NCBI GenBank assembly: GCA_963745995.1
Contig: CAVUZF010000005.1
Span: 1,266,568-1,330,567, forward strand
Direction: 5' to 3'
Source of the DNA: Bryobacterales bacterium
Lineage (GTDB): Bacteria > Acidobacteriota > Terriglobia > Bryobacterales > Bryobacteraceae
DNA length: 64,000 bases
Shown here: one piece after another, positions 7,002 to 29,253 of the stretch
How positions within the stretch are numbered: position 1 is the first letter of the stretch
How the letters are laid out: each line of letters begins with the position of its first letter
Position numbers and translations under genes: made by a program
The notes under the pieces: model-generated
Databases searched by the model: none
What the model was told of the DNA's origin: nothing
Seen by the model: only the letters and a program-made list of their open reading frames with translations

Positions 7002-7013
7002 GTTGGCCCTCCT

Positions 7014-7946: not shown

Positions 7947-7979
7947 GTTTCCCCCGAGTCGCGATCAAAGATGGTGATC

Positions 7980-11658: not shown

Positions 11659-11888
11659 GTGATCTCTTTGAAGGCATGAAGAATTTCAACCCTTCTACAG
11701 CGCCTGGCCATCCGCTGGGCGGAGGAAATTTTGTCGCTATTTGAACGCCGGGGCGTCACAGGACCGCACAGACTATGCTCTTCGAAGTCCACCGTTTTAT
11801 GGCCCCCCAACGCCTTCCAGGAACTTTGTGCCGACCTGGATACCGTACTTGCTGCCCTTGCTGATGCTTACCGTAGGAGGTCGTGACC

Positions 11889-12236: not shown

Positions 12237-12370
12237 GGAAAGGAAATGGAGGCACGCCTGCCCGACACGAACTCATGAGCTGCCGTTCCAGCGTGCGATA
12301 GCGTGCAATGGTTTATGGCAACGGTGGCAATTTTGGCATGTATGGCAATATAGAATCTGTAACTTGCTGA

Positions 12371-12410
12371 TAGGGCAGGGTGCCAACGGGTTCGAATCCC
12401 ACCCTCTCGG
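12371..12410 (+). other. Degenerate tRNA 3-prime fragment (type II, Ser-like variable arm, T-arm and acceptor strand)
   Basis: GGCA-GGG-TGCC is a variable-arm-like hairpin. It is followed by ACGGG TTCGAAT CCCAC CCTCTCG G, which resembles a tRNA-Ser 3-prime end, but the T-stem is mismatched, there is no CCA, and no matching 5-prime half lies upstream. Confidence 0.3.
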
Positions 12411-12671
12411 TCAGTCAATCTTAGCAATCTCAATTGGTCGGGAGTATTTTGTTCATAGCGAGCCCCTGGCGTCAGTCTCGTTCATTGGACACGCCTCAAC
12501 TTCTGAGGATCAGCCCTGTTAGAATGGGTTGTGAGATTTGGTAGCTCTGTTGAACACCGTTTGAACACCATTAAGCGCCAAACGGAAGTTCATAATGAAA
12601 ACTGGGTATCCTGTATCGCCAGAACAAGATCGACAAAAACGCTATGTTCTTTATTGTCAATTGACCGTCGT

Positions 12672-12717
12672 CTTCCCAAGCTGGACGTCGCGGGTTCGAT
12701 CCCCGTCTCCCGCTCCA
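12672..12717 (+). tRNA. tRNA-Gly(CCC) 3-prime half only (anticodon loop to CCA), a probable integration scar rather than a functional gene
   Basis: The sequence CTTCCCAA GCTGG ACGTC GCGGG TTCGATC CCCGT CTCCCGC T CCA reads as anticodon loop, 3-prime anticodon stem, variable loop, T-arm, acceptor strand, discriminator U and CCA. This is collinear with bacterial tRNA-Gly. The 5-prime acceptor strand GCGGGAG, the D-arm and the 5-prime anticodon stem are absent upstream. Confidence 0.6.
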
Positions 12718-12818
12718 TCTTCTCCACAACCGGCATATTCTTCAATAATATGATCGCAAGCTACGGTCGTTTAGTAGCGCCGACTTTTGAACCTTGTTGG
12801 TCAGTACGCGAAAGGGGC

Positions 12819-14623: not shown

Positions 14624-15009
14624 GGTTGTTCCCCTCAGGTGATTTCTAACTCATGCAGTCTACACCACACCGCAAGACCCCGAGTGCAGCAAATCGGGAC
14701 TATTCCATCCGAGATTAGAGCCAGCCAAACAAAGTGGGACACGGCCCGCCAAAACCCGCATTGACGCATCTTGGCACACTCAAGGCCGGAGGAGCGCCGG
14801 AATAAACGGACAATAAGTCTTCGGCGCGCCCGGGCACTCCTCGGGTGTGCCGCATTCCCGGCACGGGCATTCCGTCCACCCATAGCAATGTCTGGCGAGA
14901 ATATACTTGCACAGAAAATTTTTTTTCATTACTATACACGCGACGTCGAATAATATTTCGCTGCAAGAAAGCGAGATGGAGCAAAACCGGGGAGGGTGAC
15001 GTCAGCAAG

Positions 15010-15879
15010 ATGGACGGTGCGTGTCTCAGTAAAATCCGGGCGGCAATCGAGCAAGCACCCGATGCCACGGTAAAGATCGGGCGCTTTATCCTGAAGAACC
15101 CCTTGCGGGCGCGCAACTTGTCGATTGGCGTTTTGGCAAAGGGGTGTGGCGTCAGCCCCGCTACCGCTTTCAGGTTTTGCCGGGACTTGGGCTACGAGGG
15201 ATACAAGGAATTTCAACTGGACCTGGCGGCGGCGGTGGCTCATAACGACGCGATGGCCCTGGAGGAATTCTCCGAGGACCCCAGCCCGGAGTCCATCGTG
15301 CGCCAGGTGTTTGAGTACAACCGGCGGAGCCTGGCGGAGACGGCGCGCATGCTGGACATCCACGTGCTGGAGCGGGTTGCCCGGCAGCTCCAGGACAGCC
15401 GGCGGAGCATGTTTCTGGGGATTGGGGCCTCCGCGCTGGTGGCTCAATACGCGGGTTTCCGGTTGGTCAGTCTGGGATTCTCAGCGCTCTCCGTCGTGGA
15501 TCCTTACCTGCAAATATTCGCCACCGAAAATGTAGGGCCCGGGGATGTGGTGGTGGGAATCAGCCACACGGGCCAGACCGACCACGTGGTGGAGGCCCTC
15601 CGCACAGCCCGGCGGCGGGGAGCCCGCACCGTGGCCATTACGAATTACCCGCAGTCGCCCCTGGCGGCAGCGTGCCAATTTCAGCTTATCACGGCCTTCC
15701 ACGAGCACCGCATCAACGCCGCGTTCTCGTCCTCCATCACCGCCCAACTGTGCGTTATCAACTCCCTCTTTTTCATTCTAGGCAGTTGGGGTGGGCAAGG
15801 CGCAAAGAAACTGGCTGAGCAAGCGGAGGAGCGTAGCCAAAAGCTGCTGCGAGCGCAGCGTATGAAGAAACGTAAGTAA
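15010..15879 (+). CDS. MurR/RpiR-family transcriptional regulator (HTH_6 plus SIS domain)
   Basis: The N-terminal HTH region reads IGRFILKNPLRARNLSIGVLAKGCGVSPATAFRFCRDLGYEGYKEF. The C-terminal SIS motifs are MFLGIGASALVAQY and VVVGISHTGQT...ARTVAITN. Confidence 0.85.
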   Translation: MDGACLSKIRAAIEQAPDATVKIGRFILKNPLRARNLSIGVLAKGCGVSPATAFRFCRDLGYEGYKEFQLDLAAAVAHNDAMALEEFSEDPSPESIVRQVFEYNRRSLAETARMLDIHVLERVARQLQDSRRSMFLGIGASALVAQYAGFRLVSLGFSALSVVDPYLQIFATENVGPGDVVVGISHTGQTDHVVEALRTARRRGARTVAITNYPQSPLAAACQFQLITAFHEHRINAAFSSSITAQLCVINSLFFILGSWGGQGAKKLAEQAEERSQKLLRAQRMKKRK

Positions 15880-15902
15880 CCTAATAATGGAGGAGCAACT
15901 GT

Positions 15903-17273
15903 ATGTATACAAGGTATTACGACCCAGAGATTTTTGTAAATTGTTTTGAAGGAATCGACCGAACCAACCACATCGTCGCCACCTACTTCATGGAAGACGA
16001 ACTGCCCGGCGAGGATTTTATCGATCACTTTTCGCTGATTCAATCCATGGCGGTTGAAGGCTCCACCGGCACCTGGCAGAAGGTGAAAGAGGAAACCGAC
16101 GAAGTACGGCACATGCTCAGCGGAAAAATGCTGGGTTACTTCGAAATTCCCACCAGCAAGCCCAACTGCCGCGCGGCGGTTGTGCAATTGGCCTTCCCCA
16201 TCGACGCGTGGATTGACAACGTCCCCATGATGCTGCTCAGCATTGCAGGCAACTGTTTTGCCTTCAGCCCCAAGCTCCGGCTGCTGGATGTTTTCATTCC
16301 CGAAAAGCAGTTGGCCAAATTCAAGGGGCCCAAGTTTGGCGTTCCCGGAATCCGCAAGCTTCTGAATGTTCCGGACCGGCCGCTTTCCCTTCACATCATC
16401 AAGCCCAAGATGGGCATGACGCCGCAACAGGTTGCCGACCAGTGCTACCAGACGGCCCTGGGCGGGGCTGACATGATGAAAGACGACGAGATGACCAGCG
16501 ACCTTTACAACAGCAATTTCGAGGATCGCGTGACGGCCGTGGGCAAGGCTCTGGAAAATGCCGAGGCCAAAACCGGAAAACGCCCCATTTATTTCGTGAG
16601 CATCACGGACGAACCACGGCGCATCTTTGCCAAAGCAGCGCGTGCGGTGGAATTGGGCGCTCGGGGCCTGTTGGTCTGTTACTCAGCCGGACTGCCGGTC
16701 ATTCGCCAATTGGCGGAAGATCCCAAGATCAACGTCCCCATTCTCATTCACGCCTCGCACATGATCGCCGCCCAGCCGCGCATTGCCTGGCCGGTCTTTG
16801 CCAAGCTGGTGCGCATTTGCGGTGGAGACCTGATGCTGACGCCCACCTACTGGTCGAGCATTCCGATGGTCAGCCTGGAGGAGGGAATCCGCACCTCGCA
16901 GATTAAGCTGGCGCCTCTTGGGCACATCAAGCCGATGTTCCCCATGCCCTGCGCGGGCGTGTATCCCGGCCTGACGCCTATCCTGATTGGGGAATACGGC
17001 ACGGACATCGTGATTCCTTCCGGCGGCGGCATGCTGGGCCATCCGGACGGCTACACGGCGGGCGCCAAGGCATGGCAGCAGGCCATTGCCGGATCGCTCT
17101 CCAATGAGGACTTCCTGACATTTGCGAAAAAGCCGGAAAACAAGGAACTGCGCCGCGCCATCGAGAAGTGGGGTTATATCGAGCGCCCCAAGACTCCGTG
17201 GCTGCGCGTTTCTCCCAAGTATCAGCCCAAACCCATGAGTTTGGATGTAGCACCATTACGTCGAACGGCGTAA
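15903..17273 (+). CDS. RuBisCO-like protein (form IV RuBisCO large-subunit homologue)
   Basis: 456 aa with RBS GGAGGA. The motifs are collinear with RuBisCO large chain: GNCFAF (N123 region), GVPGIR, HIIKPKMGM (K175/K177), GGADMMKDDEMT (K201-D203-E204), PILIHASH (H294 region), ICGGDLML and SGGGMLGHPDG (GGGxLGHP). Confidence 0.9.
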   Translation: MYTRYYDPEIFVNCFEGIDRTNHIVATYFMEDELPGEDFIDHFSLIQSMAVEGSTGTWQKVKEETDEVRHMLSGKMLGYFEIPTSKPNCRAAVVQLAFPIDAWIDNVPMMLLSIAGNCFAFSPKLRLLDVFIPEKQLAKFKGPKFGVPGIRKLLNVPDRPLSLHIIKPKMGMTPQQVADQCYQTALGGADMMKDDEMTSDLYNSNFEDRVTAVGKALENAEAKTGKRPIYFVSITDEPRRIFAKAARAVELGARGLLVCYSAGLPVIRQLAEDPKINVPILIHASHMIAAQPRIAWPVFAKLVRICGGDLMLTPTYWSSIPMVSLEEGIRTSQIKLAPLGHIKPMFPMPCAGVYPGLTPILIGEYGTDIVIPSGGGMLGHPDGYTAGAKAWQQAIAGSLSNEDFLTFAKKPENKELRRAIEKWGYIERPKTPWLRVSPKYQPKPMSLDVAPLRRTA

Positions 17274-17348
17274 CACTGAGCCGAGATGTCCAATAAAGGT
17301 CCCCCGGCGCGGCGATTTACCACGCTGCGATACTTTAGGGGGACTTCT

Positions 17349-17408
17349 GGAGGGGTGGGGCTTAACCTTTGCTAACTCGTCGGGAGTCCCGCCCTTCCAA
17401 AGTTTTTT
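17349..17408 (+). terminator. Candidate intrinsic terminator downstream of the RLP gene
   Basis: GGAGGGGTGGGGC (17349-17361) can pair with GAGTCCCGCCCTTCC (17384-17398). The roughly 13-bp pairing includes G-U pairs and the loop is large, about 21 nt. AAAG and TTTTTT (17403-17408) follow. Confidence 0.4.
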
Positions 17409-17493
17409 ACCAGATGTAGTACGAAGTCCACAGTTGACCCTTGATGTGCAGGGTCACGTTAAAGTCCAAGAAGTTCCCCGAAGGGGAACAAGA

Positions 17494-17586
17494 TCATTAG
17501 CCGTAGGTGAAACCTACGGGCAGATATTCGACCCCGCAGGGTCGAATATCTGCACGCTTTCCACGGGCTTCACCCGAGGCTAATGA
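17494..17586 (+). other. Cloverleaf-like four-way structured element in the RLP-kinase spacer
   Basis: The outer stem is TCATTAGCC/GGCTAATGA (9 bp). It encloses three hairpins: GTAGG-TGAAA-CCTAC, CAGATATTCGACCC-CGCA-GGGTCGAATATCTG (14 bp, perfect) and CGGG-CTTCA-CCCG. Flanking hairpins are GTTCCCC-GAA-GGGGAAC (17473-17489) and CGGCCCC-TCC-GGGGCCG (17591-17607). Confidence 0.5.
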
Positions 17587-17671
17587 CCTTCGGCCCCTCC
17601 GGGGCCGTGATATTTCCTCAACTTTGACGCGACTCTGCTTGAAGTGAAAGTCCGTATTGCGCGAGGTTCTC

Positions 17672-19159
17672 ATGGTGGATCATCACCGCTTCCTTGCCTT
17701 CGATCTTGGCGCCGAGAGTGGGCGTGCTGTGGTGGGCACCCTGCAGGAAGGCCGCCTTTCCCTCGAAGAGATTTCCCGATTTCCCAACACCCCCGTGCAG
17801 GTTCACGAAACCCTTTATTGGGACGTTCTGGCTCTTTACAACCACATCCTGGAAGGTCTGCGGGAGTATACGCGACGCTACGGCGCCGAGGTGGAAGGGA
17901 TTGGGATTGACACCTGGGGCGTCGATTTTGGACTGCTCTCCGCGCGGGGCGAGTTGCTCCAGAACCCTGTCCACTACCGTGACCGCCGGACGGTCACCAT
18001 GATGGAGCAAGTGAAGTCCCTGATCTCGGCGGAGGAACTGTTTCGTCTTACGGGCATGGCGCTGCTCCCTTTCAATACCTCCCTCCAACTTCTCTCCCTG
18101 CGCTTAACCCGGAATCCGATTCTTGATCGTGCGGCGACGATGCTGATGATGCCGGATCTGTTCGCCTACTTCCTTACCGGGCGGAAGTGCTGCGAACGGA
18201 CGAACGCAATCTCGACGCAATTGCTGGATCCTTGGAAAAGTGAGTGGAGCACGGAGATTGTTCGCAAGCTGGATCTACCGGCGTCGATCTTGCCGGAGCT
18301 CGTGGACCCGGGCACGGTGCTGGGCGATGTGCTCGGCCCGGTGCGGGACGCCGTGGGCCTGAAAAGCGGCGTGGTGATCGCTCCTTGCACCCACGATACG
18401 GGCTCAGCCGTGGCGGCGGTCCCCGGCCAGGGGGATGACTGGGCCTTCTTGAGTTGTGGCACGTGGTCGGTGCTGGGGACGCTGAACCCCGATGTGGTGA
18501 CAACCCCGCGGGCTTATGCCGCGGGAATGTTCAACGAGCTGACGATTCATAGCCGAATTCTCTGCCGCAACATTGTCGGCTTGTGGTTGCTTCAGCAAGC
18601 GCGGGCGGCATGGATGCGGGCGGGCAAATCGTATTCTTATGAAGAAATCGTCAAGCTGGCCGCGCAGGCGCCGGAAGGCGGGCCACTGATCAATGCGGAC
18701 GCGCCGCGATTCCACGCGCCGCAGGATATGCTCGTCGCGATCCAACAGTACTGCGCGGAGACGGGGCAGGCGGTCCCGCAACATCCGGGAGAAACGGCCC
18801 GGTGCATCCTGGAAAGCCTGGCGTTTGCCTACCGCCGGTGGCTGGATGAAATTACCGCGTTGTCGGGCCGTTCCTTCCGCGTGTTGCACTTGGTGGGCGG
18901 GGGTTCAAAGAATTCGCTGCTTTGCCAGCTCACGGCCAATGCCACGGGGCTTCCCGTTATGGCCGGACCTTCCGAGGCAACCGTGGCAGGCAATGTGATG
19001 GTGCAGGCGCTGGCGAAAGGGTTGGTCCGAACGACTCAGGAAATGCGCGACGTTATCGGCCGCTCCTCCGAGCTTGTGGAGTATCAACCTCAGGATGTGG
19101 CAAGTTACCAGCGGCGTTTTGACGAGTATTTGCGCCTGGCGGAGAAGTTTCCGGAGTGA
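17672..19159 (+). CDS. FGGY-family carbohydrate kinase, rhamnulokinase (RhaB)-like
   Basis: Collinear with E. coli RhaB over its length: FDLGAESGR, GIGIDTWGVDFGLL, PVHYRDRRT, PFNTSLQL, LMMPDLFAYFLTG, HDTGSAVAA, LSCGTWSVLG, GLWLLQ and HLVGGGSKNSLLCQLTANATG. Confidence 0.85.
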   Translation: MVDHHRFLAFDLGAESGRAVVGTLQEGRLSLEEISRFPNTPVQVHETLYWDVLALYNHILEGLREYTRRYGAEVEGIGIDTWGVDFGLLSARGELLQNPVHYRDRRTVTMMEQVKSLISAEELFRLTGMALLPFNTSLQLLSLRLTRNPILDRAATMLMMPDLFAYFLTGRKCCERTNAISTQLLDPWKSEWSTEIVRKLDLPASILPELVDPGTVLGDVLGPVRDAVGLKSGVVIAPCTHDTGSAVAAVPGQGDDWAFLSCGTWSVLGTLNPDVVTTPRAYAAGMFNELTIHSRILCRNIVGLWLLQQARAAWMRAGKSYSYEEIVKLAAQAPEGGPLINADAPRFHAPQDMLVAIQQYCAETGQAVPQHPGETARCILESLAFAYRRWLDEITALSGRSFRVLHLVGGGSKNSLLCQLTANATGLPVMAGPSEATVAGNVMVQALAKGLVRTTQEMRDVIGRSSELVEYQPQDVASYQRRFDEYLRLAEKFPE

Positions 19160-19171
19160 CTAAGCCGAAGG

Positions 19172-19328
19172 CCTTGGAGTGCGGTAGCAGCAGCCACCGC
19201 CTTCCGCCCATTGTTTATGCGGGAATCGGGCCAGAACACTCGTTGTCGCCGCTCTCGCTCGAACTCTTGTACGATCGCGGTATGAGCCTCGGGCGGAAGG
19301 CGGTGGCTGCTGCTACCGCACTCCAAGG
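19172..19328. repeat. MITE-like element bounded by 38-bp perfect terminal inverted repeats
   Basis: CCTTGGAGTGCGGTAGCAGCAGCCACCGCCTTCCGCCC at 19172-19209 is exactly reverse-complementary to 19291-19328, with an 81-nt unique core between them. It sits between the kinase stop and the cyclase start. No transposase is present. Confidence 0.7.
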
Positions 19329-19375
19329 CGTTCGACCGAGGACGACAGAAGCTTGCTGAGGTAGAGAGGAGTTCC

Positions 19376-20059
19376 GTGATTCGAGGAAGGATTGTTGACC
19401 TGAGCCATCGGCTCCGTCCCGGCAAGGAAGAGTATCCGCTCGAACTGGAAACTCATTTCACCGACGAAGTCTTGCCGCAATATCAGCGCGGCGCTGACGT
19501 TTGGTACATCCTCCAGACCATCCACATGTCCTCCCACTGTGGCACGCATATCGAGTTCCCTTATCATCACAACCGCCACGGGCTGGACGCGGGATCGTTT
19601 CCGCTCGAAAGGTTGATGGGTGATTGCCTGCTTCTGAACTTTACCCATAAGCGAGCGGGGGACGCCGAGACCAGTGAGGCCATTACCCTGGCGGAGCTCA
19701 AGGCCTTTGAGGATGAAATCCAGCCCGGAATCATGTTGATGTTCAATTTCAACTGCGCGCAGTACTACGGGACGCCGCGTTCCCATGACCGGCCGCACTT
19801 GACTTATGAGGCGATCGAGTGGCTGGCCCTGGAGAAGAAAATCGGGTTGCTCGGCAGTGACGCATCGGGATTTGAAAAAAAAGGAGTACCCAACCAGCCG
19901 GGCCACCAGATCCTGATGGACCATCAGATTCCCGTCATCGAATCCGCCACCAACCTGGACCAGCTTCGGAAGCGAAAGTTCACGCTGCTGGTGCTTGCCC
20001 TGAGCGTGGAAGGGCTGGATGCCTGCCCAGTTCGTTTGTTGGGGATTGAGGACGAATAA
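19376..20059 (+). CDS. Cyclase-family (kynurenine-formamidase-like) metal hydrolase
   Basis: 227 aa. Contains the HxGTHxD/ExPxH-type motif SSHCGTHIEFPYH. GTG start after GAGAGGAG. Confidence 0.7.
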   Translation: MIRGRIVDLSHRLRPGKEEYPLELETHFTDEVLPQYQRGADVWYILQTIHMSSHCGTHIEFPYHHNRHGLDAGSFPLERLMGDCLLLNFTHKRAGDAETSEAITLAELKAFEDEIQPGIMLMFNFNCAQYYGTPRSHDRPHLTYEAIEWLALEKKIGLLGSDASGFEKKGVPNQPGHQILMDHQIPVIESATNLDQLRKRKFTLLVLALSVEGLDACPVRLLGIEDE

Positions 20060-20075
20060 GAGCGAGACATCTATC

Positions 20076-21029
20076 GTGGAAAAAGAACAAGCCTTTTCGC
20101 TTTATCAGCAGATGGTGCGCATCCGGCGGTTCGAGGAAGAACTCTATCAGCTCTTTCTGAACCGGCCCATGCCCGGAAGCATGCACCAGTACATCGGGGA
20201 AGAGGCCGTGGCAGTGGGGGTTTGTGCGCATCTTACCCGGGAGGATTATGTCACCAGCACCCATCGTGGCCACGGCCACTGCATCGCCAAGGGGGTGGAC
20301 CTGAACGCCATCATGGCGGAGATGTTTGCCAAGAAGACCGGCTGCTGCAAGGGCCTGGGGGGCTCGATGCACATCGCCGACTTCAGCGTGGGAATGCTGG
20401 GGGCCAACGGCATTGTGGGGGCGGGGATTCCCATTGCCACTGGCGCCGGATGGGCTTGCCAGTTGCGCTATCCGGGCCGTGTCTCGGTGGTTTTCTTCGG
20501 GGAAGGGGCAGCCAACGAAGGCGCCTTTCACGAAGGGCTGAATCTGGCCTCGGTCTGGAAACTCCCAGTGGTCTTTGTGTGTGAGAACAATCTGTATAAC
20601 TTCTCCGTCCACTATAAGAAAACGATGGCCCTTGACGATGTTGCGGACCGTGCCGTGGCTTATGGCATTCCCGGCAGGGTAGTGGACGGCATGGATCTGG
20701 TAACGGTCTATCATGCTGCGGGCGAAGCGATCGAGCGCGCGCGAAGGGGAGGCGGCCCGACTTTGCTGGAGTGCAAGACTTATCGATTTATGGGCCATTC
20801 GCGCTTCGAGCCGGCGGGGTATCGCACCAAGGAAGAAGTGGCCGAGTGGAAGAAAAGGGATCCGCTTTTCATGTTTCAGCAAGTACTTATTTCGAAGTTC
20901 CAGGCATCGCCGGCGGATTTCGAGAAGATCGATGCGGACGTCAATCGAGAGATCAATGAGGCCGTGACGTTTGCCGAGCAAAGCCCCGATCCCGCTCCTA
21001 ATGATTACGCGCAGTTCATTTTTGCTTGA
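20076..21029 (+). CDS. Thiamine-diphosphate-dependent dehydrogenase E1 alpha subunit (acetoin/pyruvate dehydrogenase AcoA type), copy 1
   Basis: RIRRFEE..., GGSMH, and the TPP-binding stretch VVFFGEGAANEGAFHEGLNLASVWKLPVVFVCENN. The GTG start was chosen just after the cyclase stop; the ORF is open from 20019. Confidence 0.85.
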   Translation: MEKEQAFSLYQQMVRIRRFEEELYQLFLNRPMPGSMHQYIGEEAVAVGVCAHLTREDYVTSTHRGHGHCIAKGVDLNAIMAEMFAKKTGCCKGLGGSMHIADFSVGMLGANGIVGAGIPIATGAGWACQLRYPGRVSVVFFGEGAANEGAFHEGLNLASVWKLPVVFVCENNLYNFSVHYKKTMALDDVADRAVAYGIPGRVVDGMDLVTVYHAAGEAIERARRGGGPTLLECKTYRFMGHSRFEPAGYRTKEEVAEWKKRDPLFMFQQVLISKFQASPADFEKIDADVNREINEAVTFAEQSPDPAPNDYAQFIFA

Positions 21030-21047
21030 AGGCGAGATGCGTTCACC

Positions 21048-22070
21048 ATGGAAGCCGCCACACTTTCGCAGGCTTTGAGGCAGGCGATTATCGAGGAAAT
21101 GCAGCGCGATGACTCGGTGGTCCTCCTAGGAGAGGACATCGGAGTTTTGGGGGGAGCTTATACCGTGACCTCCGGCCTGCTCGAGATGTTTGGCGGGCAG
21201 CGTGTGCGTGATACACCCATTTCCGAAACCGCCATCGTGGGCGCTGCGGTGGGAGCGGCGATGACCGGCTTGCGCCCGGTGGCGGAGATTCAATTCAATG
21301 ACTTCCTGGCTTGCGCCATGGATCAGGTCTGCAACCAGGCAGCGAAGCTGCGATTCATGATGGGCGGGCAGGTCAAAATTCCCATCGTCATCCGCGCGCC
21401 CATCGGGGCGGTGGGGCGGGCGGCGCAACACTCGCAATCCCTGGAGGCTTGGTTTATGCACACGCCCGGACTGAAAGTGGTGCTGCCCTCCACACCTTAT
21501 GACGCCAAGGGCCTACTGAAGACCGCCATTCGCGACGACAATCCGGTGATGTTCTTTGAGCACAAGCTGCTGTACGGGGCGCGCTCGCCGGGGGGGAAAG
21601 CGGCGACGGCGGTGGGCAGCCTGACCGCAGCATTCCGGCCGGCTCCCCCCGACGATTACACCGTGCCTTTTGGCGTGGCGGATATTAAGCGCAATGGGAA
21701 AGACGTTACGGTGGTAGCGACGGGCTTCATGGTGCACCAGGCGCTTCAGGCGGCGCGGGAATTGGAGAAAGAGGGGATCGACGTAGAAGTGCTTGACCCA
21801 CGAACGCTCGTACCTCTGGACAAAGCTGCAATCCTCAGCTCCGTGCGCAAGACGTCGCGGCTGGTCATCGTGAGCGAAGATGTTTTGACTTGCGGCGTGG
21901 CGTCGGAAATTTCCGCTCTGGTGGCCGAGCACGGCATCTTTTCCCTGGACGCTCCCATCCGCCGGATTTCTGTTCCTGACACACCCATACCCTTCGCGCC
22001 GGCAATGGAACGGGCAGTCGTACCCCAACTTCACCAGATCACCGGCGTGATCAGGGAACTTTTCCATTAG
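21048..22070 (+). CDS. Dehydrogenase E1 beta subunit (AcoB type), copy 1
   Basis: 340 aa. Contains LGEDIGVLGGAYTVTSGL, DTPISETAIVGAAVGAAMTGLRPVAEIQF and a C-terminal transketolase-C-like domain ending PDTPIPFAP. Confidence 0.85.
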   Translation: MEAATLSQALRQAIIEEMQRDDSVVLLGEDIGVLGGAYTVTSGLLEMFGGQRVRDTPISETAIVGAAVGAAMTGLRPVAEIQFNDFLACAMDQVCNQAAKLRFMMGGQVKIPIVIRAPIGAVGRAAQHSQSLEAWFMHTPGLKVVLPSTPYDAKGLLKTAIRDDNPVMFFEHKLLYGARSPGGKAATAVGSLTAAFRPAPPDDYTVPFGVADIKRNGKDVTVVATGFMVHQALQAARELEKEGIDVEVLDPRTLVPLDKAAILSSVRKTSRLVIVSEDVLTCGVASEISALVAEHGIFSLDAPIRRISVPDTPIPFAPAMERAVVPQLHQITGVIRELFH

Positions 22071-22154
22071 GAGCTGTGCCTTGCAGAGGAGCGTCCCAAT
22101 CTGTAGAATCTCGAACGCCCAAGCGCTTCGCAAGGTGGGCGCCGGGAGGCTGGT

Positions 22155-22721
22155 TTGAGTTTCGCTTATATTTTCGATGTTGATGGCGTGCTCCTGAGAA
22201 CCATGAAGGCGCATTTTGCGTGTTACAAGCAGGCCCTGGCGGAGTCAAATGTACCCATCGATAAGACGCAGTTTTACACCCAGGCGGGCATGACCGGGCA
22301 GGAGCAGATCAGATATTTCGCTGAAAAAGCCGGCGTGAAAGTTGACGCGGAAAAGATCTATGTAAGGAAGCGCGAGATTTTTCAGGAGCATAAGGACTCT
22401 GCCGAAGCCATCGACTGCAATGTTGGCTTGCTCAATGTCTTGAAATCCGCGAGGGTTCCCGTGGCGATTGCCAGCGGAAGCTCCCGGAAATCCTGGGTTC
22501 CGCTGCTGGCCAAGTTTGGGATCCAGGCGGATGCGTTGGTGGGGGCGGAAGACGTCAAGCGTGGCAAGCCCCATCCCGACCTTTTCCTTTGCGCAGCGGA
22601 GAAACTCGGAGTCCCACCCGCGAATTGTATTGTCATTGAAGACTCGGAGGCGGGTATTGATGCGGCGAAGGCCGCCGGAATGAAGGTAATGCATTTTTAC
22701 GATAACGTGAACGAAACATAA
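22155..22721 (+). CDS. HAD-IA family hydrolase (beta-phosphoglucomutase / sugar-phosphatase type)
   Basis: TTG start 5 nt after GGGAGG. Motif I is FDVDGVL, motif II is IASGSS, and motifs III/IV are KRGKPHPDLF...VIEDSEAGIDAAKAAG. Confidence 0.8.
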   Translation: MSFAYIFDVDGVLLRTMKAHFACYKQALAESNVPIDKTQFYTQAGMTGQEQIRYFAEKAGVKVDAEKIYVRKREIFQEHKDSAEAIDCNVGLLNVLKSARVPVAIASGSSRKSWVPLLAKFGIQADALVGAEDVKRGKPHPDLFLCAAEKLGVPPANCIVIEDSEAGIDAAKAAGMKVMHFYDNVNET

Positions 22722-22743
22722 TCATGGTAAGGAGGAGGCTCTC

Positions 22744-23721
22744 ATGATCGAAAATCATTTATTCGGAGCGTGCTTGCCGACCTTTGGAAATTGTGCGGAC
22801 CGCTATTGCCTGAGCGGCTATGGTGGGGGCGGCAAGAATATGCAGGAGATGCTGGACTTGGCGACCACGGTCAAGGGTCTGGACGGTCTGGAATTGGTAG
22901 GCAACTGGCATGTGAATGACGAAAACATCCGCGACGTGGCCGCGATGTTCCAGGACCGGGGACTCAAGATTTCCATGTTGGTCCCCGACCTGTGGACGCA
23001 GGCCAAATGGGGCAGGGGAAGCATCGCCGCGCCTGACGCCAAGACGCGCCAAGCCGCGATAGATGAAGTCAAGAAGGTCATGGACTGGGGCGCCGAACTG
23101 GGCTGCCCTTATGTGGATGTGTGGCCCGGTCAGGATGGATTCGACTATGGCTTCCAGGCTGACTACGTCGAAGTCTGGAAATGGCTTCGTGAAGGTCTGG
23201 TGGCCTGTGCGAATCATAATGACAAGGTGCGAGTGCTGGTGGAATACAAGCTCAAGGAGCCCCGCACCCACTGCTTTGTGAACTCCGCCGCCAAGGTGCT
23301 TCTGCTGCTTCAAGGTCTTGACAAAGTGGGTGTGCTGCTGGATATCGGCCATTCCATGGCGGCCGGCGAAAATGCCGCCGAGGCTGCCGCGCTGTTGGCG
23401 AGCTACGGCAAGCTCGATTACCTTCACCTGAACGACAATTATGGCAATTGGGACGACGACATGATCCTGGGGGCCCAGCACCTGGTGGAATATCTGGAAC
23501 TCGTTTACTGGATCAAACGGTTGGGATATAAAGGTTGGCTGACTCTCGATATCTTCCCCTATCGGGAAGATGGCGTCTGCGCGGCGACGCAATGCCGGGA
23601 GTGGATGGCAGCTTTCTTCCGGGCTGTTTGCCGGGGCGGAGTTGAAAACTTTACGGAAGTCATTCAGAGCGGGGATGCTTGCGGCGCGTCGGAACTTGTG
23701 CGGCGGGCGCTGAACATCTAA
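22744..23721 (+). CDS. Xylose-isomerase-like TIM-barrel sugar or sugar-phosphate isomerase/epimerase
   Basis: 325 aa with RBS AAGGAGGAGG. The pattern VLVEYKLKEPRTH ... LLDIGHSMAAGE ... LHLNDNYGNWDDD parallels the metal-ligand pattern of the xylose/L-rhamnose isomerase superfamily. Confidence 0.7.
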   Translation: MIENHLFGACLPTFGNCADRYCLSGYGGGGKNMQEMLDLATTVKGLDGLELVGNWHVNDENIRDVAAMFQDRGLKISMLVPDLWTQAKWGRGSIAAPDAKTRQAAIDEVKKVMDWGAELGCPYVDVWPGQDGFDYGFQADYVEVWKWLREGLVACANHNDKVRVLVEYKLKEPRTHCFVNSAAKVLLLLQGLDKVGVLLDIGHSMAAGENAAEAAALLASYGKLDYLHLNDNYGNWDDDMILGAQHLVEYLELVYWIKRLGYKGWLTLDIFPYREDGVCAATQCREWMAAFFRAVCRGGVENFTEVIQSGDACGASELVRRALNI

Positions 23722-23736
23722 CCGCCCTATGAAATG

Positions 23737-23772
23737 CTTGGAGTGCGGTGGCTGCTGCTACCGCACTCCAAG
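23737..23772. repeat. Hairpin copy of the 19172/19291 inverted-repeat sequence, directly after the TIM-barrel gene
   Basis: CTTGGAGTGCGGT - GGCTGCTGCT - ACCGCACTCCAAG. The stretch GGCTGCTGCTACCGCACTCCAAGG (24 nt) is identical to part of the 19291-19328 arm. Confidence 0.65.
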
Positions 23773-23853
23773 GTTTCATTTATGGTGGTGAGCCGGAGGA
23801 ACGGCGCGACATGTGCCAATATCTCTGACGTGCCACACCAGGAGGGACGATCC

Positions 23854-24943
23854 ATGGCGATCATCGAGCCCTTTGCGGGCGCACCGCACAAAGACCGCTT
23901 CCTGGCGGCCTTGCGTGGGGAGCGCACGGACCGGGTGCCCCATTTCGAAATCCTCGTCGAGGACCAGCATGTTGAGAAGTTCCTCGGCCGGCCCGCCGGC
24001 AACACGCTGGGCGTGGGCGGCGACCCTGCCAAGGGTGCAGCGGCCGCGGAGGGTTGCCGCCCCATGTTTCCGCGCGACTATATTGATCTATGCAGGATCA
24101 CCGGGCAGGATGTGATTGCCCTGGAGGCCATCTGGACGCCTATCAAACACGTTCGGGCGGATGGCACTAAAGGTCCAATTACCGACCGGAGCATCAAGAC
24201 GCGGGCGGACTTCGACCGCATCATTTGGCCCGGCGAGGCCGAGATCGAAGAACGCATTCAGTATGTTCGCGAGTACGTTGCCGCCGCCAAGGGCACGGGC
24301 TTCGGCGTGGTGTTCCTTTGCGCCTCCATTTTCCAGACCCTGTACGAATTTGTCGTGGGCCTCTCCGACTGCATGATCATGGTCATGGAGGACCAGGACT
24401 TCTTTGCGGAGCTGATGTCCCGCTCGGCCGATTACTTTGAGGAAGTGGTGCGGCGCGCCGTGCATGAAGGGGTGGATGTGGTTTTTGCGGCGGATGATTT
24501 TGCCTTCAAAACCGGCTTCTTCGTGCGGCCGGAAATTTTCAGGAAAGCGTGGCGCCCTCATTATGACCGCATCCTGGCGCCGGCTCGCGATGCCAAGGTT
24601 CCCATCGTGTTCCACTCCGACGGGAAGATTGACGAAGGCATCGAGATGCTCGCTGGAAATGGGAGTGAAGGCCATCCACCCCATGGACCCTTCCGGCATC
24701 GATTATCGGGATTACAAGAAGCGATATGGGGATCGCCTGACGCTGTTTGGCAATATCGACATCACCTGGCCGCTCGTCGAGGGGACTCCGGCCGATGTCG
24801 AGCGCGACGTTCGGGATCACATGGAGGCGCTCAAGCCGGGCGGCCGATGGGTTGCCGGCAGCAGCCACAGCATCGTGAACTATATTCCCCACGATAATTT
24901 CGTCACCATGATCAATGCGATCCATAAGTATGGAGCGTATTGA
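23854..24943 (+). pseudogene. Uroporphyrinogen-decarboxylase (URO-D) family protein, one frameshift
   Basis: ATG follows GGAGGG. The N-terminus FLAALRGERTDRVPHFE is a typical URO-D-family start. The frame changes at about 24646-24655, from ...KIDEGIEML to LEMGVKAIHPMDPSGIDYRDYKKRYGDRLTLFGNIDI... in ORF 24437-24943. Confidence 0.7.
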
Positions 24944-24980
24944 GCGCTGTATCCGCAGACGAGAAAAGAGGTAAGGAAAT

Positions 24981-26140
24981 ATGGCTGTTGCCATCAAGCT
25001 GCCCGACATGGGAACCAACGTTGAGGAGTGCAAGCTGCAGACTTGGCGAGTGCAGGAGGGGCAGCGCGTAAAACGCGGCGACGTTCTTGCCGATATCGAA
25101 ACCGACAAGGCCGTGGCCGAACTCGAATCAACCGCGGAAGGCGTGTTGCTGCGCCAAGTGGTAAAAGCCGGCGTCATGGCACAGATGGGTGATGTTCTTG
25201 CTTACGTCGGGCAGCCCGGCGAGTCCGTGCCGGATCCCGCAGCCGCAGGCATCAGCGGCGAGTGGTGCGGCTGCCCCGGCTCCCGCCGCGTCTCGGCCGC
25301 AAACCGCAATCGCGCCCGGCACGCCAGCGCGGGTTTCACCCATGGTTCGCAATCTGGCGGCGAAGATGGGCGTTGATCTCGCCGCCATTCGCGGGACCGG
25401 CGCGGGAGGCATGATCACGCGCGAGGACGTCCTTAAAGCCAGCCGCGCCACGCCCAGCGCGCCATCCGCGCCGGCGGCGGGCGAGCAGCCTTCCCGGGGG
25501 CAAGCTGCGGTGGCGCGAGCGGTCACGCAAAAGTTGGAAGGAAACGCCGCACCTGTATGTTTCCATGAGCATCGATATGACCGCCGCCGTGAAGGCCCGG
25601 GGTGATAAAGATGCAACGGGCACGCGGCCCAGCTTTGATGCCATCTTTCTGAAGGCCCTGGCGCGGGCGATTGGCGCCGTGCCTGTTGTCGCTGCCCGGT
25701 GGGAAGGCGATCGAATCGTCAAAACGCCGGGAATCCACATCGCGCTGGCGGTGGGTTTCGGAAACGATCTGTTTCTGCCGGTTATTCGCGATGTGAACCA
25801 GAAGAACCTCTTGACTCTGCAAGCAGAGATCGCCGCTGTTTCCGCCAGTGTTCGCGCCGGCTCGCTGAAGCCCGAACAGATGACGGGCGGTTGCATGGCT
25901 TTAAGCAACCTGGGAATGTATCCCGTGGAAGCATTCGAGGGTATTATCTTTCCCGGGCATAGTTCGATTCTGACCGTCGGGACCGTGCGCGAGACGCCGG
26001 TGGTGGTGGAGGGTCGAGTGGAAATCCGGCCGCTCGCCAAGGCTACGCTGGCGGCGGACCATCGTTTGATCAACGGGCGAGTGGCGGCGGAATTTTTGAC
26101 CAAAGTTAAGGAAGTCCTGGAAGCAGGAGATCTTGGGTGA
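24981..26140 (+). pseudogene. Dihydrolipoamide acyltransferase E2 (lipoyl domain, E3/E1-binding domain, catalytic domain), two frameshifts
   Basis: The lipoyl domain carries DIETDKAVAELES. In a second frame lie an Ala/Pro linker and VSPMVRNLAAKMGVDLAAIRGTGAGGMITREDV. In a third frame lies the catalytic domain, ending ATLAADHRLINGRVAAEFL. Shifts sit at about 25230-25265 and at the A run 25529-25532. Confidence 0.8.
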
Positions 26141-26160
26141 CCCCAACAGGGAGTGTAGGA

Positions 26161-27121
26161 ATGACTTACGACAAAGAATTTCTTCTATCACTTTACAAAA
26201 GGATGGCGCTGATCCGCCACTTTGAGGAACGCGTCAAGTTTCTGTTTCTGGAAGGCGTGATGCCCGGCACCATCCATCAGTACAACGGCCAGGAAGGCGT
26301 TGCCGTGGGCGTGTGCAGCGCGCTCAAGCCGGGCGACGTTATCACCAGCACGCACCGTCCGCACGGCCACGCGCTGGCGCGAGGGTTGAGCGTGGAATCG
26401 CTGATGCACGAGCTGTTCGGCAAGACCACCGGATGCTGCAAAGGCAAGGGTGGCTCGATGCACATGGGCGACCTGGATAAGGGCATGGTGCCCGCCGTCG
26501 CCATCGTGGCCGGGGCGATTCCCATGGCGACGGGTATCGCCCTGGCCATGAAGATGAAGAAGCAGCCGAACGTGGTGGCCTGCTTCATGGGCGACGGCGC
26601 GGTGAATGAGGGAGCGTTTCACGAAGGCGTGAACATGGGCTCCATCTGGTCAGTCCCGATCATTTACGTCATCGAGAACAATCTCTACTCAGCATCGACG
26701 CCCATTTTCGATATGGTGCGTGTAAAGAAGCTCTCTGACCGCGGCGCGGCGTACGGCATTCCCGGCGTAACGGTGGACGGCAACGATGTGTTGGCGGTGC
26801 ATGAGGCGGCGCGGGCTGCCATCGACCGCGCCCATCGCGGCGAAGGTCCCACGCTGCTCGAGTGCATGACCTATCGGATCACCGGCCACTCGCGGCGCGA
26901 TCCTTGCAACTATCAGCCTGAGACGGAACGGAAGAAAGCGCTCGAGAATGAACCCATCCGGCGCTTTCGCAGCTACCTGCTCGACCAAGGGCTGGCGACA
27001 GAGGACGACGTGACAAGAGTCGATGGTGAGAATTGAAGCGGAAATTGAAGCGGCCGTCAAGTCAGCAATGGCGGCGCCAGACCCAGCGCCCGAAGCGGCT
27101 CTGGAAGATCTTTTCGTGTGA
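26161..27121 (+). pseudogene. Dehydrogenase E1 alpha subunit (AcoA type), copy 2, C-terminal frameshift
   Basis: LIRHFEERV, GGSMHMGD and CFMGDGAVNEGAFHEGVNMGSIWSVPIIYVIENN. The ORF stops at 27036, but the +1 frame continues with RIEAEIEAAVKSAMAAPDPAPEAALEDLFV to the stop at 27119-27121. This is the expected C-terminus. The shift sits at about 27015-27030. Confidence 0.8.
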
Positions 27122-27135
27122 GGAGTGCAAAGAGC

Positions 27136-28155
27136 ATGGCACGGTTAACGATTGCGGAAGCGTTGCGTGAGGGGTTGCGGGACGAGATGATCCGCGACCC
27201 GCGGGTTTTTTGCATTGGCGAGGACATCGGGATTCGCGGCGGCTGGGGCGGGGCATTTACCGTCACCCTCGGCCTGGAGCAGGACTTTCGGAACCGGATC
27301 ATCGACACGCCGATCTCCGAAGCCGGCATTTTCGGCGTGGCCCTGGGGGCGGCGGTGATGGGCTTGCGGCCGGTCGCGGACGTCCAGTATGGAGACTTCC
27401 TATTTTGCGCCATGGACCAGGTGGTGAATCAGATCGCCAAGATGCGCTACATGTCCGGCGGAAAGCTCACCGTGCCGCTGGTGATGCGCGCCCCCGTTGG
27501 CGCTACGGGCCGCGGCGCCCAGCATGGACAGAATCTGGAATCGTTTTTCCTCAGCGTGCCGGGGATCAAGATTGCCTGTCCTGCCACCGCCTATGACGCC
27601 CTGGGAATTCTCCGGGCGGCGATTCGCGATGACAATCCGGTGCTGATGTTCGAGCACAAACTGCTGTACGGGGCCAAAGGCGCGCGCGCGGAATCCGACT
27701 CGGTTGATGCTTCCAGCGAAATTCCGGCGGAGGATTACGTCGTGCCGCTGGGCAAAGGCATCATCAGGCGGGAAGGAACCGACGTCACGATTATCGCAAC
27801 GCTCCTGATGATGCATCGGGCGCTCCAGGCCGCGGAACAGTTGGCGGGGGAGGGCATCAGCGCCGAGGTGATCGATCCTCGCAGCCTCGTTCCTTTTGAC
27901 TGGGACCTGGTGAAGGCTTCGGTGATGAAGACCACGCGGGCGGTGATTGTTGAGGAAGGCCCCAAGCGCGGCGGCTGGAGCGCGGAAATCGCCGCCACCC
28001 TGGCGGAGTCGATGAGCGACTACCTTACCGCGCCCGTCATGCGCGTCGCCTCGCCTGACATTCCGGTACCGTTTGCTCCGCCCATGGAAAAGTTCTACCG
28101 GCCTGATTCCAAACGCGTTGTCGAGGCCGTGCGCACTTTGGTTGTGCCCGCATAG
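27136..28155 (+). CDS. Dehydrogenase E1 beta subunit (AcoB type), copy 2
   Basis: 339 aa. Contains IGEDIGIRGGWGGAFTVTLGL, DTPISEAGIFGVALGAAVMGLRPVADVQY and SPDIPVPFAPP. It is paralogous to 21048-22070. Confidence 0.85.
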   Translation: MARLTIAEALREGLRDEMIRDPRVFCIGEDIGIRGGWGGAFTVTLGLEQDFRNRIIDTPISEAGIFGVALGAAVMGLRPVADVQYGDFLFCAMDQVVNQIAKMRYMSGGKLTVPLVMRAPVGATGRGAQHGQNLESFFLSVPGIKIACPATAYDALGILRAAIRDDNPVLMFEHKLLYGAKGARAESDSVDASSEIPAEDYVVPLGKGIIRREGTDVTIIATLLMMHRALQAAEQLAGEGISAEVIDPRSLVPFDWDLVKASVMKTTRAVIVEEGPKRGGWSAEIAATLAESMSDYLTAPVMRVASPDIPVPFAPPMEKFYRPDSKRVVEAVRTLVVPA

Positions 28156-28226: not shown

Positions 28227-29064
28227 TCAGTGCGTCACCGGCCTGGTTTTTGAAGCGGCTGCGCTGATTTCCTGGCCCACGGCGTCCTGAGTCTCCATCA
28301 TGGTGGTCCGCATAATGTTTCGGGATAGGCGTTCCGCCAGCGGCTGGATCAGCCAGCGAAACGCCAGCGGAATGCTCGCGGCTCAAGTCCATCAATTCGA
28401 TCTCAACGTACACTCCGTCGTCACGCTGTTCGACCCGCGTTATGGTGAATGTCCGCCAGACGTAACCCGGTCCGTGATCCTCCGGAAATGCGTGCTCGCC
28501 GGGTTGCCCATAGTCGGCGATCTCCTGCACCCGGACGGAATTGCTCAAGCTGTATGCCCTGCTGGCGTCCAGCCTTGTGATGTCGACATCGTTGTCGGTT
28601 TCCACAGCGGCGGTAACGGAATAAGCCTTCTGCACCATCAGCAGGGTTACCTTCTCATGGCCCGGTGTTTGCGTGAGCAGCCTTGATTTCGCCACCATGG
28701 GTTTATAGAAATCCTTGTAGCGTTCGTAATCAGCGAGCACGCCCAATACCTCATCGAGCCTGGCCTTCGGAACGAACACCGCGCCGATCCAGTCATGGAT
28801 CAGTCCGTGCGGCACCGGGTGTGGGCTTTCACCGTCCGCCGGTTCCACCAGAATCTCGCCCGCCCGCACTCGCTGGGCTCGCTCCCGATTCTCATCCACC
28901 CACAGGAAAGGAGCATGGCCACTGGCGCGCTTCTCCATGCGCGTCTTCGCGGCACGAACATAAGCGTCCCAGGCCTGAACCGTCTCGGGCTTGAGATCTA
29001 TCGCGTTTGACAATGCAGGAGCCAGCAGAAGAAAAAGAATTGCGAAGCCAGGTCTGAACCTCAC
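28227..29064 (-). pseudogene. Exported hypothetical protein (START/SRPBCC-like fold suspected), one frameshift; appears fused to the upstream MFS ORF in the six-frame track
   Basis: GTG follows GGGAGG, with signal peptide RFRPGFAILFLLLAPALSNA. After ...VEIELMDLSR the frame shifts at about 28370-28380 into IPLAFRWLIQPLAERLSRNIMRTTMMETQDAVGQEISAAASKTRPVTH, ending at a stop at 28227-28229. The fold guess is weak. Confidence 0.5.
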
Positions 29065-29253
29065 CTTGCGCCGCCTCCCAACAAATCGGGAGAAGAGACT
29101 TGTGAGATTAACGACAATCCGTCGTGGAAGCTTCGCGAGGTCCGTCCCGTATTGCCTTTGGCGCTTCAACCTCTGCTGCTCAGGTCTGGCGTTCACGGTG
29201 ATCGTGGGCATGGCGTTTGCGTTCCCCGGTTTGCCGGCCTGGCGAGCAGCATT

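Follow-up and report, generated by a model that had tools for sequence, protein, structure and literature searches.

The stretch of DNA considered here, 64,000 nucleotides of contig CAVUZF010000005.1 from a Bryobacterales bacterium (assembly GCA_963745995.1, positions 1,266,568 to 1,330,567) and referred to below as the window, contains between positions 15010 and 28155 a run of 13 co-directional genes on the + strand in which a RuBisCO-like protein (RLP) keeps company with an FGGY-family sugar kinase, an isomerase-like TIM barrel and the E1 and E2 components of a lipoyl-dependent dehydrogenase complex. Open reading frame (ORF) analysis and Pfam assignments uphold the gene calls and the domains that a preliminary description of this DNA had listed. 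The same description took the genes for a single locus; judged from the distribution of their orthologues across related loci, they instead form a composite: a conserved core (RpiR-RLP-FGGY-TIM-URO-D-E2-E1α-2-E1β-2) with a rare second module, here called module B, inserted between the FGGY and TIM barrel genes.

The core opens with an RpiR-family regulator gene (15010-15879; HTH_6, 4e-15, and the phosphosugar-binding SIS domain, 1.8e-22), followed by a form IV RLP of 456 amino acids (15903-17273; RuBisCO_large, PF00016, 7.7e-37; RuBisCO_large_N, PF02788, 3.3e-10) and an FGGY kinase nearest to RhaB (17672-19159; FGGY_N, 9e-29; FGGY_C, 1.6e-37). It resumes beyond module B with a xylose-isomerase-like TIM barrel (22744-23721; AP_endonuc_2, PF01261, 2.5e-27), a URO-D-family protein (23854-24943; 362 amino acids after removal of an extra G, with Pfam URO-D matching both frame pieces), the E2 dihydrolipoamide acyltransferase (24981-26140; lipoyl, E3-binding and 2-oxoacid_dh domains spread over three frames), E1α-2 (26137-27121; E1_dh, 2.9e-81, its C-terminus in another frame) and E1β-2 (27136-28155; assigned by Pfam). 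Module B comprises a cyclase-family metal hydrolase (19376-20059; PF04199, 4.9e-22), E1α-1, the thiamine pyrophosphate (TPP)-binding subunit of the first E1 pair (20019-21029; E1_dh, 2.3e-86), E1β-1 (21048-22070; Transket_pyr and Transketolase_C) and a HAD hydrolase of the β-phosphoglucomutase family (22155-22721; HAD_2, 5.7e-30; 144 bits on TIGR02009, against a cut-off of 153). All of these genes are on the + strand and tightly spaced, apart from an RLP-FGGY gap of ~400 bp and an FGGY-cyclase gap of ~215 bp. The first of these spacers holds a GC-rich hairpin (17591-17607, + strand), and a hairpin with a perfect 16-bp stem (23737-23772, + strand) occupies the gap between the TIM barrel stop (23721) and the URO-D start (23854); both come from a consensus scan and have no Rfam match, and Rfam and tRNA scans of the window produced no match. 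The preliminary description was also right about what is missing from the window: a class II (RhaD-type) aldolase was not found there by tblastn with E. coli RhaD and the class II aldolase of the related locus L029, and an E3-type domain is absent from all window ORFs of at least 370 amino acids, every one of which was annotated.

The reading frame of the window is broken at four places in this operon, all within 2.4 kb: in the URO-D gene (~24652), twice in E2 (25247-25312 and ~25530) and in E1α-2 (~27030). Unrelated window genes (GH127-like, GH2 and an MFS transporter) are likewise split. Two sister assemblies overlap the region: L087, which is 99.56% identical and spans window positions 9906-22830, and L094, which is 98.5% identical and spans 12746-33725 (21 kb) with 24 single-base gap openings. 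L094 is split elsewhere, its RLP, HAD and sigma-54 activator genes being broken and its GH127, MFS and E1α-2 genes intact (the last encoding 327 amino acids). When L094 alleles are applied to the window (loss of G at 24652, of C at 25526 and of G at 27030, and gain of A at 25330), the 362-residue URO-D protein and full E1α-2 are restored and the E3-binding and catalytic parts of E2 are joined, so that three of the four breaks are repaired. One E2 shift, in the Ala/Pro-rich linker (25247-25312), is common to the window and L094 and remains after the repair; if it were real, E2 would consist of a 130-residue lipoyl protein and a separate protein with the E3-binding and catalytic domains. Full-length E2 is found in 30 related loci, and genuine stand-alone lipoyl proteins only in L038 and L079. 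Codon differences between the window and L094 are predominantly synonymous (synonymous:non-synonymous 30:4 in URO-D, 19:7 in E2, 19:3 in E1α-2, 18:1 in E1β-2 and 19:2 in RLP), and in L010, a metagenome-assembled genome (MAG) built from short reads, all genes that are broken in the window are intact, the URO-D orthologue measuring 368 residues. Because the breaks of L094 differ, the strain differences are biased to synonymous sites and the L010 orthologues are whole, these comparisons identify the frameshifts in URO-D, E2 and E1α-2 as long-read assembly errors and the locus as functional. Single-base indels of the kind typical of long-read assemblies are seen at window positions 13311, 13586, 24652, 25330, 25526, 27030, 28378-29497 and ~48690, and a 2-nt indel in L087 alters the stop codon of the RpiR gene.

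The RLP belongs to form IV, the non-carboxylating proteins: it has both large-chain domains and has lost the carboxylation residues. Alignment to the form III enzyme 6hun places Ser at K334, Pro at H294, Ile at R295 and Leu at H327, and the same changes are found clade-wide. The carbamate/metal triad and the glycines that hold the P1 phosphate are retained; R295 and H327 of the second-phosphate site have given way to I/V and L, and K334 to S. Loss of the second site with retention of the first would suit a substrate that has a single phosphate and an apolar end. The signature of the clade, in RuBisCO numbering, is E60 T65 N123 K175 K177 K201 D203 E204 P294 I/V295 H298 L327 C379 G381 G403 G404. 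Between the window and the sister assemblies L087 and L088 there are 31 nucleotide differences in the RLP gene, and the protein is identical. These account for 31 of the 54 single-nucleotide polymorphisms between the window and L087 (15974-17060), with L088 carrying the same allele; the RLP gene is a local hot spot of divergence in which purifying selection is strict, and the allele may be a recombined one.

In one search this RLP drew more than 1,200 scored homologues, of which the best 120 (67-100% identity) belong to Terriglobia, Bryobacteraceae, Armatimonadota, Omnitrophota, Ratteibacteria and others. When each species was represented by a single genome, relatives turned up in 162 genomes, and the best 80 loci (62-88% identity) were examined: all are in MAGs, and they are distributed over more than 15 phyla (Acidobacteriota, Armatimonadota, Omnitrophota, Planctomycetota, Spirochaetota, Bacteroidales, Clostridia, Chloroflexota, Actinomycetota, Verrucomicrobiota, Hydrogenedentota, Aerophobetes, Atribacteria, Latescibacterota, Sumerlaeota and Rhodospirillales are among the phyla and groups represented). 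A second protein search, with a Planctomycetaceae RLP as query, again returned only MAG and metagenome proteins, and a plasmid search gave no match above 34% identity, so that the clade is in no isolate there. The clade, with an internal identity of 62-91%, has thus far been met only in MAGs and metagenomes, the environments being peat, soils, sediments and groundwater. In a neighbor-joining tree with reference RLPs from annotated plasmids it is tight and distantly sister to MtnW, apart from the RLPs linked to DUF1537 kinases and from a photosynthesis-cluster RLP. To our knowledge, most form IV RLPs are without an assigned function; placing this one among the form IV clades, as the preliminary description had proposed, puts it on sequence grounds in a distinct, uncharacterized group outside every functionally assigned subgroup that was tested.

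The nearest characterized relative is MtnW of methionine salvage in Bacillus and Geobacillus (form IV-YkrW; 33-34% identity), the 2,3-diketo-5-methylthiopentyl-1-phosphate enolase, and the nearest PDB match is the MtnW structure 2oek (E = 1e-58, 202 bits). The two proteins have in common the K175/K201/D203/E204 core and the replacements at P294, I295 and L327; the RLP differs in keeping E60 and K177, which MtnW has lost, and in having Asn for the catalytic Lys. That Lys, at the position of RuBisCO N123 (Lys98 in G. kaustophilus), is present in the Priestia MtnW and is Asn in the window RLP and in all 12 aligned members of its clade. Scores on the MtnW models are far below their cut-offs (NF007095, 255.5 bits against 409; TIGR03332, 211 against 513.6), and the mtnK/mtnX/mtnB/mtnD (cupin) neighborhood seen around the Priestia mtnW is absent from the window and from the conserved neighbors. 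The R. rubrum RLP (3qfw) scores 100.6 bits, below MtnW and the form III RuBisCOs, and an assignment to its type (IV-DeepYkr) fails on this score and on context, no homologue of the nucleosidase MtnN being found in any locus. On the latter ground a role in the salvage of S-adenosylmethionine by-products is also rejected. The R. rubrum enzyme, a 5-methylthio-D-ribulose-1-phosphate 1,3-isomerase, nevertheless provides a mechanistic template: in the methylthioadenosine-isoprenoid shunt (cited in PMC6302742) it converts a ketose-1-phosphate with an apolar end to a 1-substituted ketose-5-phosphate. The difference is that the clade described here has no methylthio-sugar or nucleosidase context and is partnered by E1/E2 rather than by a cupin methylsulfurylase.

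What the RLP is partnered by was determined by tblastn of the window proteins against all loci, with matches counted on the 41 that have at least 3 kb of sequence upstream and at least 6 kb downstream. E1α is found near the RLP in 35 of these, E1β in 34, E2 in 33, the RpiR regulator in 28 (upstream of the RLP), the TIM barrel in 27 (orthologues 55-82% identical), the FGGY kinase in 23 and the URO-D protein in 17; counted over all loci, RhaB-like kinases occur in 45. The remaining families are sparse (LsrF-like DeoC 6/41, RPE 5/41, SDR 5/41, HAD 4/41, cyclase 3/41), and all-against-all clustering of the ORFs yielded no further widely conserved family and no conserved transporter. The association of RLP, FGGY kinase, E1α/β, E2 and URO-D, for which the preliminary description had suggested a check across phyla, is therefore conserved, as is that with the TIM barrel, and the linkage of RLP to E1/E2 (35/41 loci, more than 15 phyla) is, as these counts of homologues have it, far beyond chance. 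The E1 pair that usually accompanies the RLP is the window's second, which adjoins E2: orthologues of E1α-2 (60-77% identical) and E1β-2 (64-86%) lie beside the RLP in most loci. Module B, on the other hand, has orthologues (54-75% identity; cyclase 65-67%, E1α-1 64-67%) only in L048, L058 and L081, where the cyclase is always followed by E1α-1, E1β-1 and HAD and where the module precedes RpiR-RLP instead of interrupting the operon. In L001, too, E1β is followed by a HAD gene.

The E1 and E2 proteins are of the same superfamilies as those of the AcoABC and pyruvate dehydrogenase (PDH) complexes, and TPP motif, lipoyl-lysine and catalytic DHR motif are in place; they stand apart in that no E3 is encoded with them, in that E1α scores below the PDH cut-off, and in being part of a phosphosugar operon with an RpiR regulator. 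On the PDH E1α model TIGR03182 (cut-off 393.85), E1α-1 and E1α-2 score 374 and 331 bits; on the subfamily model NF006667, E1β-1 and E1β-2 score 364 and 327 bits, above the cut-off of 321. E2 has its lipoyl-lysine (DKA, in 'ETDKAV') and the catalytic 'DHRLING' and, one linker shift aside, is a bona fide member of its family.

RhaB, a ketose 1-kinase, is by far the best-matching FGGY subfamily for the window kinase, which is 35.6% identical to the E. coli enzyme, 25% identical to LsrK and 24% identical to the apulose kinase AplK; the RhaB cut-offs are not reached (TIGR02627, 418 bits against 528; NF007925, 372 against 639). The known D-apiose pathway was considered and rejected (the comparison was with AplK of E. 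coli SE15, and AptB resembles E1β in its C-terminal domain only). The TIM barrel, whose best PDB match is a 'xylose isomerase' of unestablished function (3ktc, E = 2.5e-54; Thermus xylose isomerase 1bxb, E = 4e-22), has weak NCBIfam matches to XylA and RhaI, all equivalog models being far below their cut-offs; its sequence makes it the probable core aldose-ketose isomerase. Pantoea plasmid homologues (36% identity) give no clue to the function of 3ktc, the gene being an orphan there. A RhaB-like kinase and, probably, an isomerase of the xylose/rhamnose isomerase fold are held in common with the canonical L-rhamnose pathway, as are RhaM and RhaT in some loci; what differs is that RhaD and an E. 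coli-type RhaA were found in no locus, and that RLP and E1/E2 stand at the aldolase's place. The URO-D protein fits its Pfam family only: it has no PDB relative at E ≤ 0.001, and its orthologue in L010 reaches 58 bits on the MtaA-type model, where the cut-off is 244, and has no HemE match.

In 11 related loci, the window not being one of them, a 'DeoC' gene proves to encode a true orthologue of LsrF, 56-62% identical to the E. coli protein and invariant at the Schiff-base K203 (that of L001 is 62% identical over 286 amino acids and scores 493 bits on NF006081, against a cut-off of 297). LsrF converts 3-hydroxy-2,4-pentanedione-5-phosphate to dihydroxyacetone phosphate (DHAP) and acetyl-CoA, according to its E. 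coli annotation, and this substrate is equivalent to a C4-oxidized 5-deoxy-pentulose-1-phosphate or 1-deoxy-pentulose-5-phosphate. The LsrF gene is accompanied by genes for an RPE-like epimerase and an SDR that resembles the dehydrogenase half of RhaD-ADH fusions. The pairing of LsrF with an RPE-like gene and an FGGY kinase recalls the Lsr system (LsrK, LsrG, LsrF, LsrE; lsrE accompanies lsrF in Salmonella), from which these loci differ in having no LsrG, LsrB or LsrR (LsrG and LsrB were found in no locus) and a kinase that is RhaB-like, not LsrK-like. In L090 the E2-E1α-E1β genes have been deleted and FGGY, RLP, URO-D, TIM barrel, LsrF, RPE and SDR kept; the scar of the deletion is a 94-residue ORF (12492-12776 of that locus) in which the lipoyl N-terminus is fused in frame to the C-terminal tail of E1β. 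Loss of the one set with retention of the other suggests that E1/E2 and LsrF-RPE-SDR are alternative, redundant branches for cleavage.

What the operon contains, that its genes are intact, that the linkage is conserved and that the RLP clade is distinct are matters of observation; each chemical step and the sugar itself are inferred. The reading that we favor, with a probability of about 0.4, is that of an intact operon that catabolizes a terminally deoxygenated sugar, in which isomerization by the RLP would prepare a sugar phosphate for cleavage to an acyl-CoA by E1/E2; the sugar is likely to be a 6-deoxyhexose such as L-rhamnose and/or a 5-deoxypentose. The xylose-isomerase-like barrel would convert the aldose to a ketose and the RhaB-like kinase would phosphorylate the latter at C1. 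The RLP would then move the carbonyl along the chain through an Mg2+/carbamate-stabilized enediolate, by tautomerization or a 1,3-shift, and E1α-β/E2 would oxidatively cleave the resulting α-ketol, passing the acyl group to lipoamide and on to CoA and freeing a triose or aldose phosphate, with lipoamide presumably re-oxidized by an E3 that the cell shares among its complexes. Such a scheme would stand in for the class II aldolase step and would conserve a thioester; in some lineages, SDR, the LsrF-type thiolase and the RPE-like epimerase could provide a parallel oxidative cleavage to acetyl-CoA and DHAP. A 5-deoxypentose would be processed via 1-deoxy-pentulose-5-phosphate to acetyl-CoA and glyceraldehyde-3-phosphate; L-rhamnulose-1-phosphate would undergo a two-carbon shift to the 4-ketose, and its cleavage would give lactoyl-CoA and glyceraldehyde-3-phosphate. 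The cleavage of a methyl-ketol put forward in the preliminary description is a plausible mechanism with some indirect support, and 1-deoxy-pentulose-5-phosphate and the 4-keto isomer of rhamnulose-1-phosphate are possible substrates of E1/E2. The more specific proposition, that bacteria of more than 15 phyla have recruited E1α-β/E2 for the cleavage of a phosphorylated deoxy-ketose delivered by a new RLP isomerase, giving acyl-CoA and triose phosphate without an aldolase, is tentative and on balance doubtful.

Several considerations weigh against this reading. The sequence of the RLP is nearer to that of MtnW, an enolase, than to that of the isomerase of R. rubrum (202 as against 100 bits). An R. 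rubrum-type two-carbon shift on a 6-deoxyhexulose-1-phosphate yields no methyl ketone, so that the acetyl-CoA version of the scheme fits 5-deoxypentoses better; the MtnN-type nucleosidase is nevertheless lacking near the cluster in every locus. The association is not reciprocal: E1β orthologues (81% and 88% identity) occur on two contigs that have no RLP within 10 kb (reciprocity fails in two cases of two), and this implies that the complex can be independent of the RLP. With E1α just under the PDH cut-off, these could be ordinary 2-oxoacid enzymes, and we know of no 2-oxoacid-dehydrogenase-type E1 that accepts a sugar phosphate. Finally, the scheme leaves the URO-D protein, the cyclase and the HAD hydrolase without explanation.

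The nearness to MtnW can be taken at face value, the RLP then being a diketone tautomerase or enolase of the MtnW/LsrG type that acts on a 2,3-diketo compound formed by dehydration or dephosphorylation of the ketose-1-phosphate; its product would go to LsrF as a β-diketone or, through dephosphorylation by HAD and further steps resembling methionine salvage, to a 2-oxoacid from which E1/E2 would make an acyl-CoA. The notion has the attraction that a 2-oxoacid is the textbook substrate of an E1 and that LsrF occurs in 11 loci without any LsrG, so that some other enzyme must supply the LsrF substrate; a HAD hydrolase is present in the window and in L001, and genes of the class II aldolase/MtnB family in about 10 loci. 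It is made unlikely by the Asn that every clade member has in place of the catalytic Lys of MtnW, by the absence of any MtnB-like or cupin (acireductone dioxygenase) gene conserved with the cluster or present in the window, and by the presence of HAD in only four of the 41 loci; many of the hosts, moreover, appear to be anaerobes, to which the O2-dependent dioxygenase step is unavailable.

If the E1/E2 complex were instead a conventional dehydrogenase for pyruvate, another 2-oxoacid or acetoin that shares no more than its regulation with the sugar genes (to dispose of pyruvate derived from lactaldehyde, for example), the RLP would be concerned with an unrelated step. The scores of E1α (331-374 bits, just under the PDH cut-off of 394) and E1β (above the subfamily cut-off) are what such an enzyme would show, and orthologous E2-E1α-E1β sets without an RLP do exist: L098 has a URO-D gene, a lipoyl/E3-binding/E1α fusion, E1β and RpiR beside a GH38/PfkB/class II aldolase set, in L099 the E2-E1α-E1β genes adjoin that for a protein of ~1050 amino acids, and sugar clusters of isolates that lack an RLP also contain E1/E2 sets. 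Yet an RLP beside this type of E1/E2 in 85% of loci and more than 15 phyla, mostly as the adjacent gene, would be out of the ordinary for a housekeeping complex; it has no E3 with it, the RpiR phosphosugar regulator stays with the E1 genes even in L098, and the window, L048 and L058 have two such complexes each. This explanation is distinctly unlikely.

An RLP that acts as a decarboxylase or transcarboxylase on a β-keto-acid phosphate in the manner of OiaC/OiaX, for a pectin sugar that is branched or acidic (D-apiose or aceric acid, for example), is improbable. RLPs of this type act in apiose catabolism (cited in PMC6302742). The sole glycosidase family to recur beside the RLP cluster, PF13204, is apiosidase-like (with DUF5060, in seven loci of six phyla: L009, L020, L030, L067, L069, L070 and L073), a GH127-like gene is adjacent in the window, and a context of rhamnogalacturonan-II and pectin glycosidases is common; PF13204 is, however, a broad family, and the kinase has only its 24% identity to AplK to offer. 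OiaC/OiaX of the D-apionate route and the RLPs linked to DUF1537 kinases resemble the window RLP in being part of a plant-cell-wall sugar cluster and in working on a phosphate ester made by a kinase; they differ in sequence (26-29% identity, a separate branch), in signature (S177/H327/S379 in the DUF1537-linked RLPs, against K177/L327/C379 in the window clade) and in kinase family. The OiaX model NF042437 gives 118 bits against a cut-off of 700, and the DUF1537 kinases that flank the RLPs of Phyllobacterium, Rufibacter and Halalkalicoccus are not adjacent in the window clade. That the locus might be a decaying relic in which URO-D, E2 and E1α-2 are truly broken, a possibility raised in the preliminary description and in keeping with the crowding of the four frame breaks and the one that two assemblies share in the E2 linker, is scarcely credible in the light of the L094 alleles that mend three of the four, the breaks in GH127, GH2 and MFS, the excess of synonymous differences in the very genes that seem broken and their intact orthologues in L010.

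All of the parts come from known superfamilies; it is their combination in an RLP-containing sugar-phosphate catabolic cluster that is undescribed in the literature searched. In that literature no paper was found in which an RLP is connected with E1/E2, an FGGY kinase, rhamnulose or LsrF, in agreement with the preliminary statement that no RLP is known to be coupled to a TPP/lipoyl complex, and we know of no report of an RLP coupled to E1/E2, an FGGY kinase or LsrF. The RLP clade is large and highly conserved and has been seen so far only in uncultured organisms. If the complex does act on the product of the RLP, the reaction would be new for both superfamilies and would widen their catalytic range, with the first sugar-phosphate substrate for a complex of the 2-oxoacid dehydrogenase type. 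It would also constitute a hidden route in soils and sediments from deoxy-sugars, released from pectin (rhamnose) or discarded by radical-SAM enzymes (5-deoxyribose), to acyl-CoA: aldolase-free, thioester-conserving and operating in uncultured bacteria that are largely those of peat, sediment and groundwater. Gene sets that can be synthesized and a short list of substrates make the question directly testable.

The neighbors of the operon that the preliminary description had invoked in support of L-rhamnose or a similar sugar do exist: RhaM (4778-5101, - strand), RhaT (about 5123-6154, - strand), and GH127-like (12822-14650), GH28 (53549-55279) and GH78-like (56107-58935) proteins, all from annotation of the window ORFs, with GH2 and GH116 also represented. 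The part of the claim that does not stand concerns rhaT and rhaM, which are on the opposite strand and 9-10 kb away. They belong to a separate - strand operon (4778-9412: RhaM, RhaT, a lactonase-type Amidohydro_2 protein, an FAA-hydrolase, an ABM protein and a 3-hydroxyisobutyrate-dehydrogenase-like protein) whose gene content looks like a non-phosphorylative route for 6-deoxy-sugars, and they may serve that operon and not the RLP operon. The link to 6-deoxy-sugars recurs elsewhere. RhaM homologues are found in nine loci of seven phyla; in L091, rhaM, URO-D, a FucI-like isomerase gene and RhaT are on the same-strand run as LsrF-RpiR-RPE-SDR-RLP-E2-E1α-E1β-TIM; and the cluster is adjoined by GH78 in L090 and by GH106 in L001.

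The protein of ~1050 amino acids that lies beside the stand-alone E2-E1α-E1β set of L099 (4465-7620) recurs near the cluster in L008 (6558-9869), L009 (16144-19311), L015 (15362-18538), L017, L038 and L066, and is not encoded in the window. It has no Pfam match and only very weak matches in the PDB, to GH27/GH36-like proteins; it may be a glycosidase that releases the sugar of the pathway.

Among isolates, sugar-linked E1 genes without an RLP are found on two plasmids. The Arthrobacter plasmid NZ_CP084551.1 (L097, 1-4642) has genes for a class II fructose-bisphosphate aldolase, a fused E1α/β, an 85-residue lipoyl protein, an FGGY kinase and a sugar ABC transporter, and the Rhizobium plasmid NZ_CP072144.1 (L096) has a sorbitol phosphotransferase system, an oxidoreductase, E1α, E1β and E2; with these clusters, sugar-linked E1 complexes could be modeled in bacteria that grow in culture. 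Further along the window, and unrelated to the operon, a pair of TldD/PmbA-like metallopeptidase genes (37487-40895) is followed by a gene for a flavin oxidoreductase of the Old Yellow Enzyme type (40941-42068).

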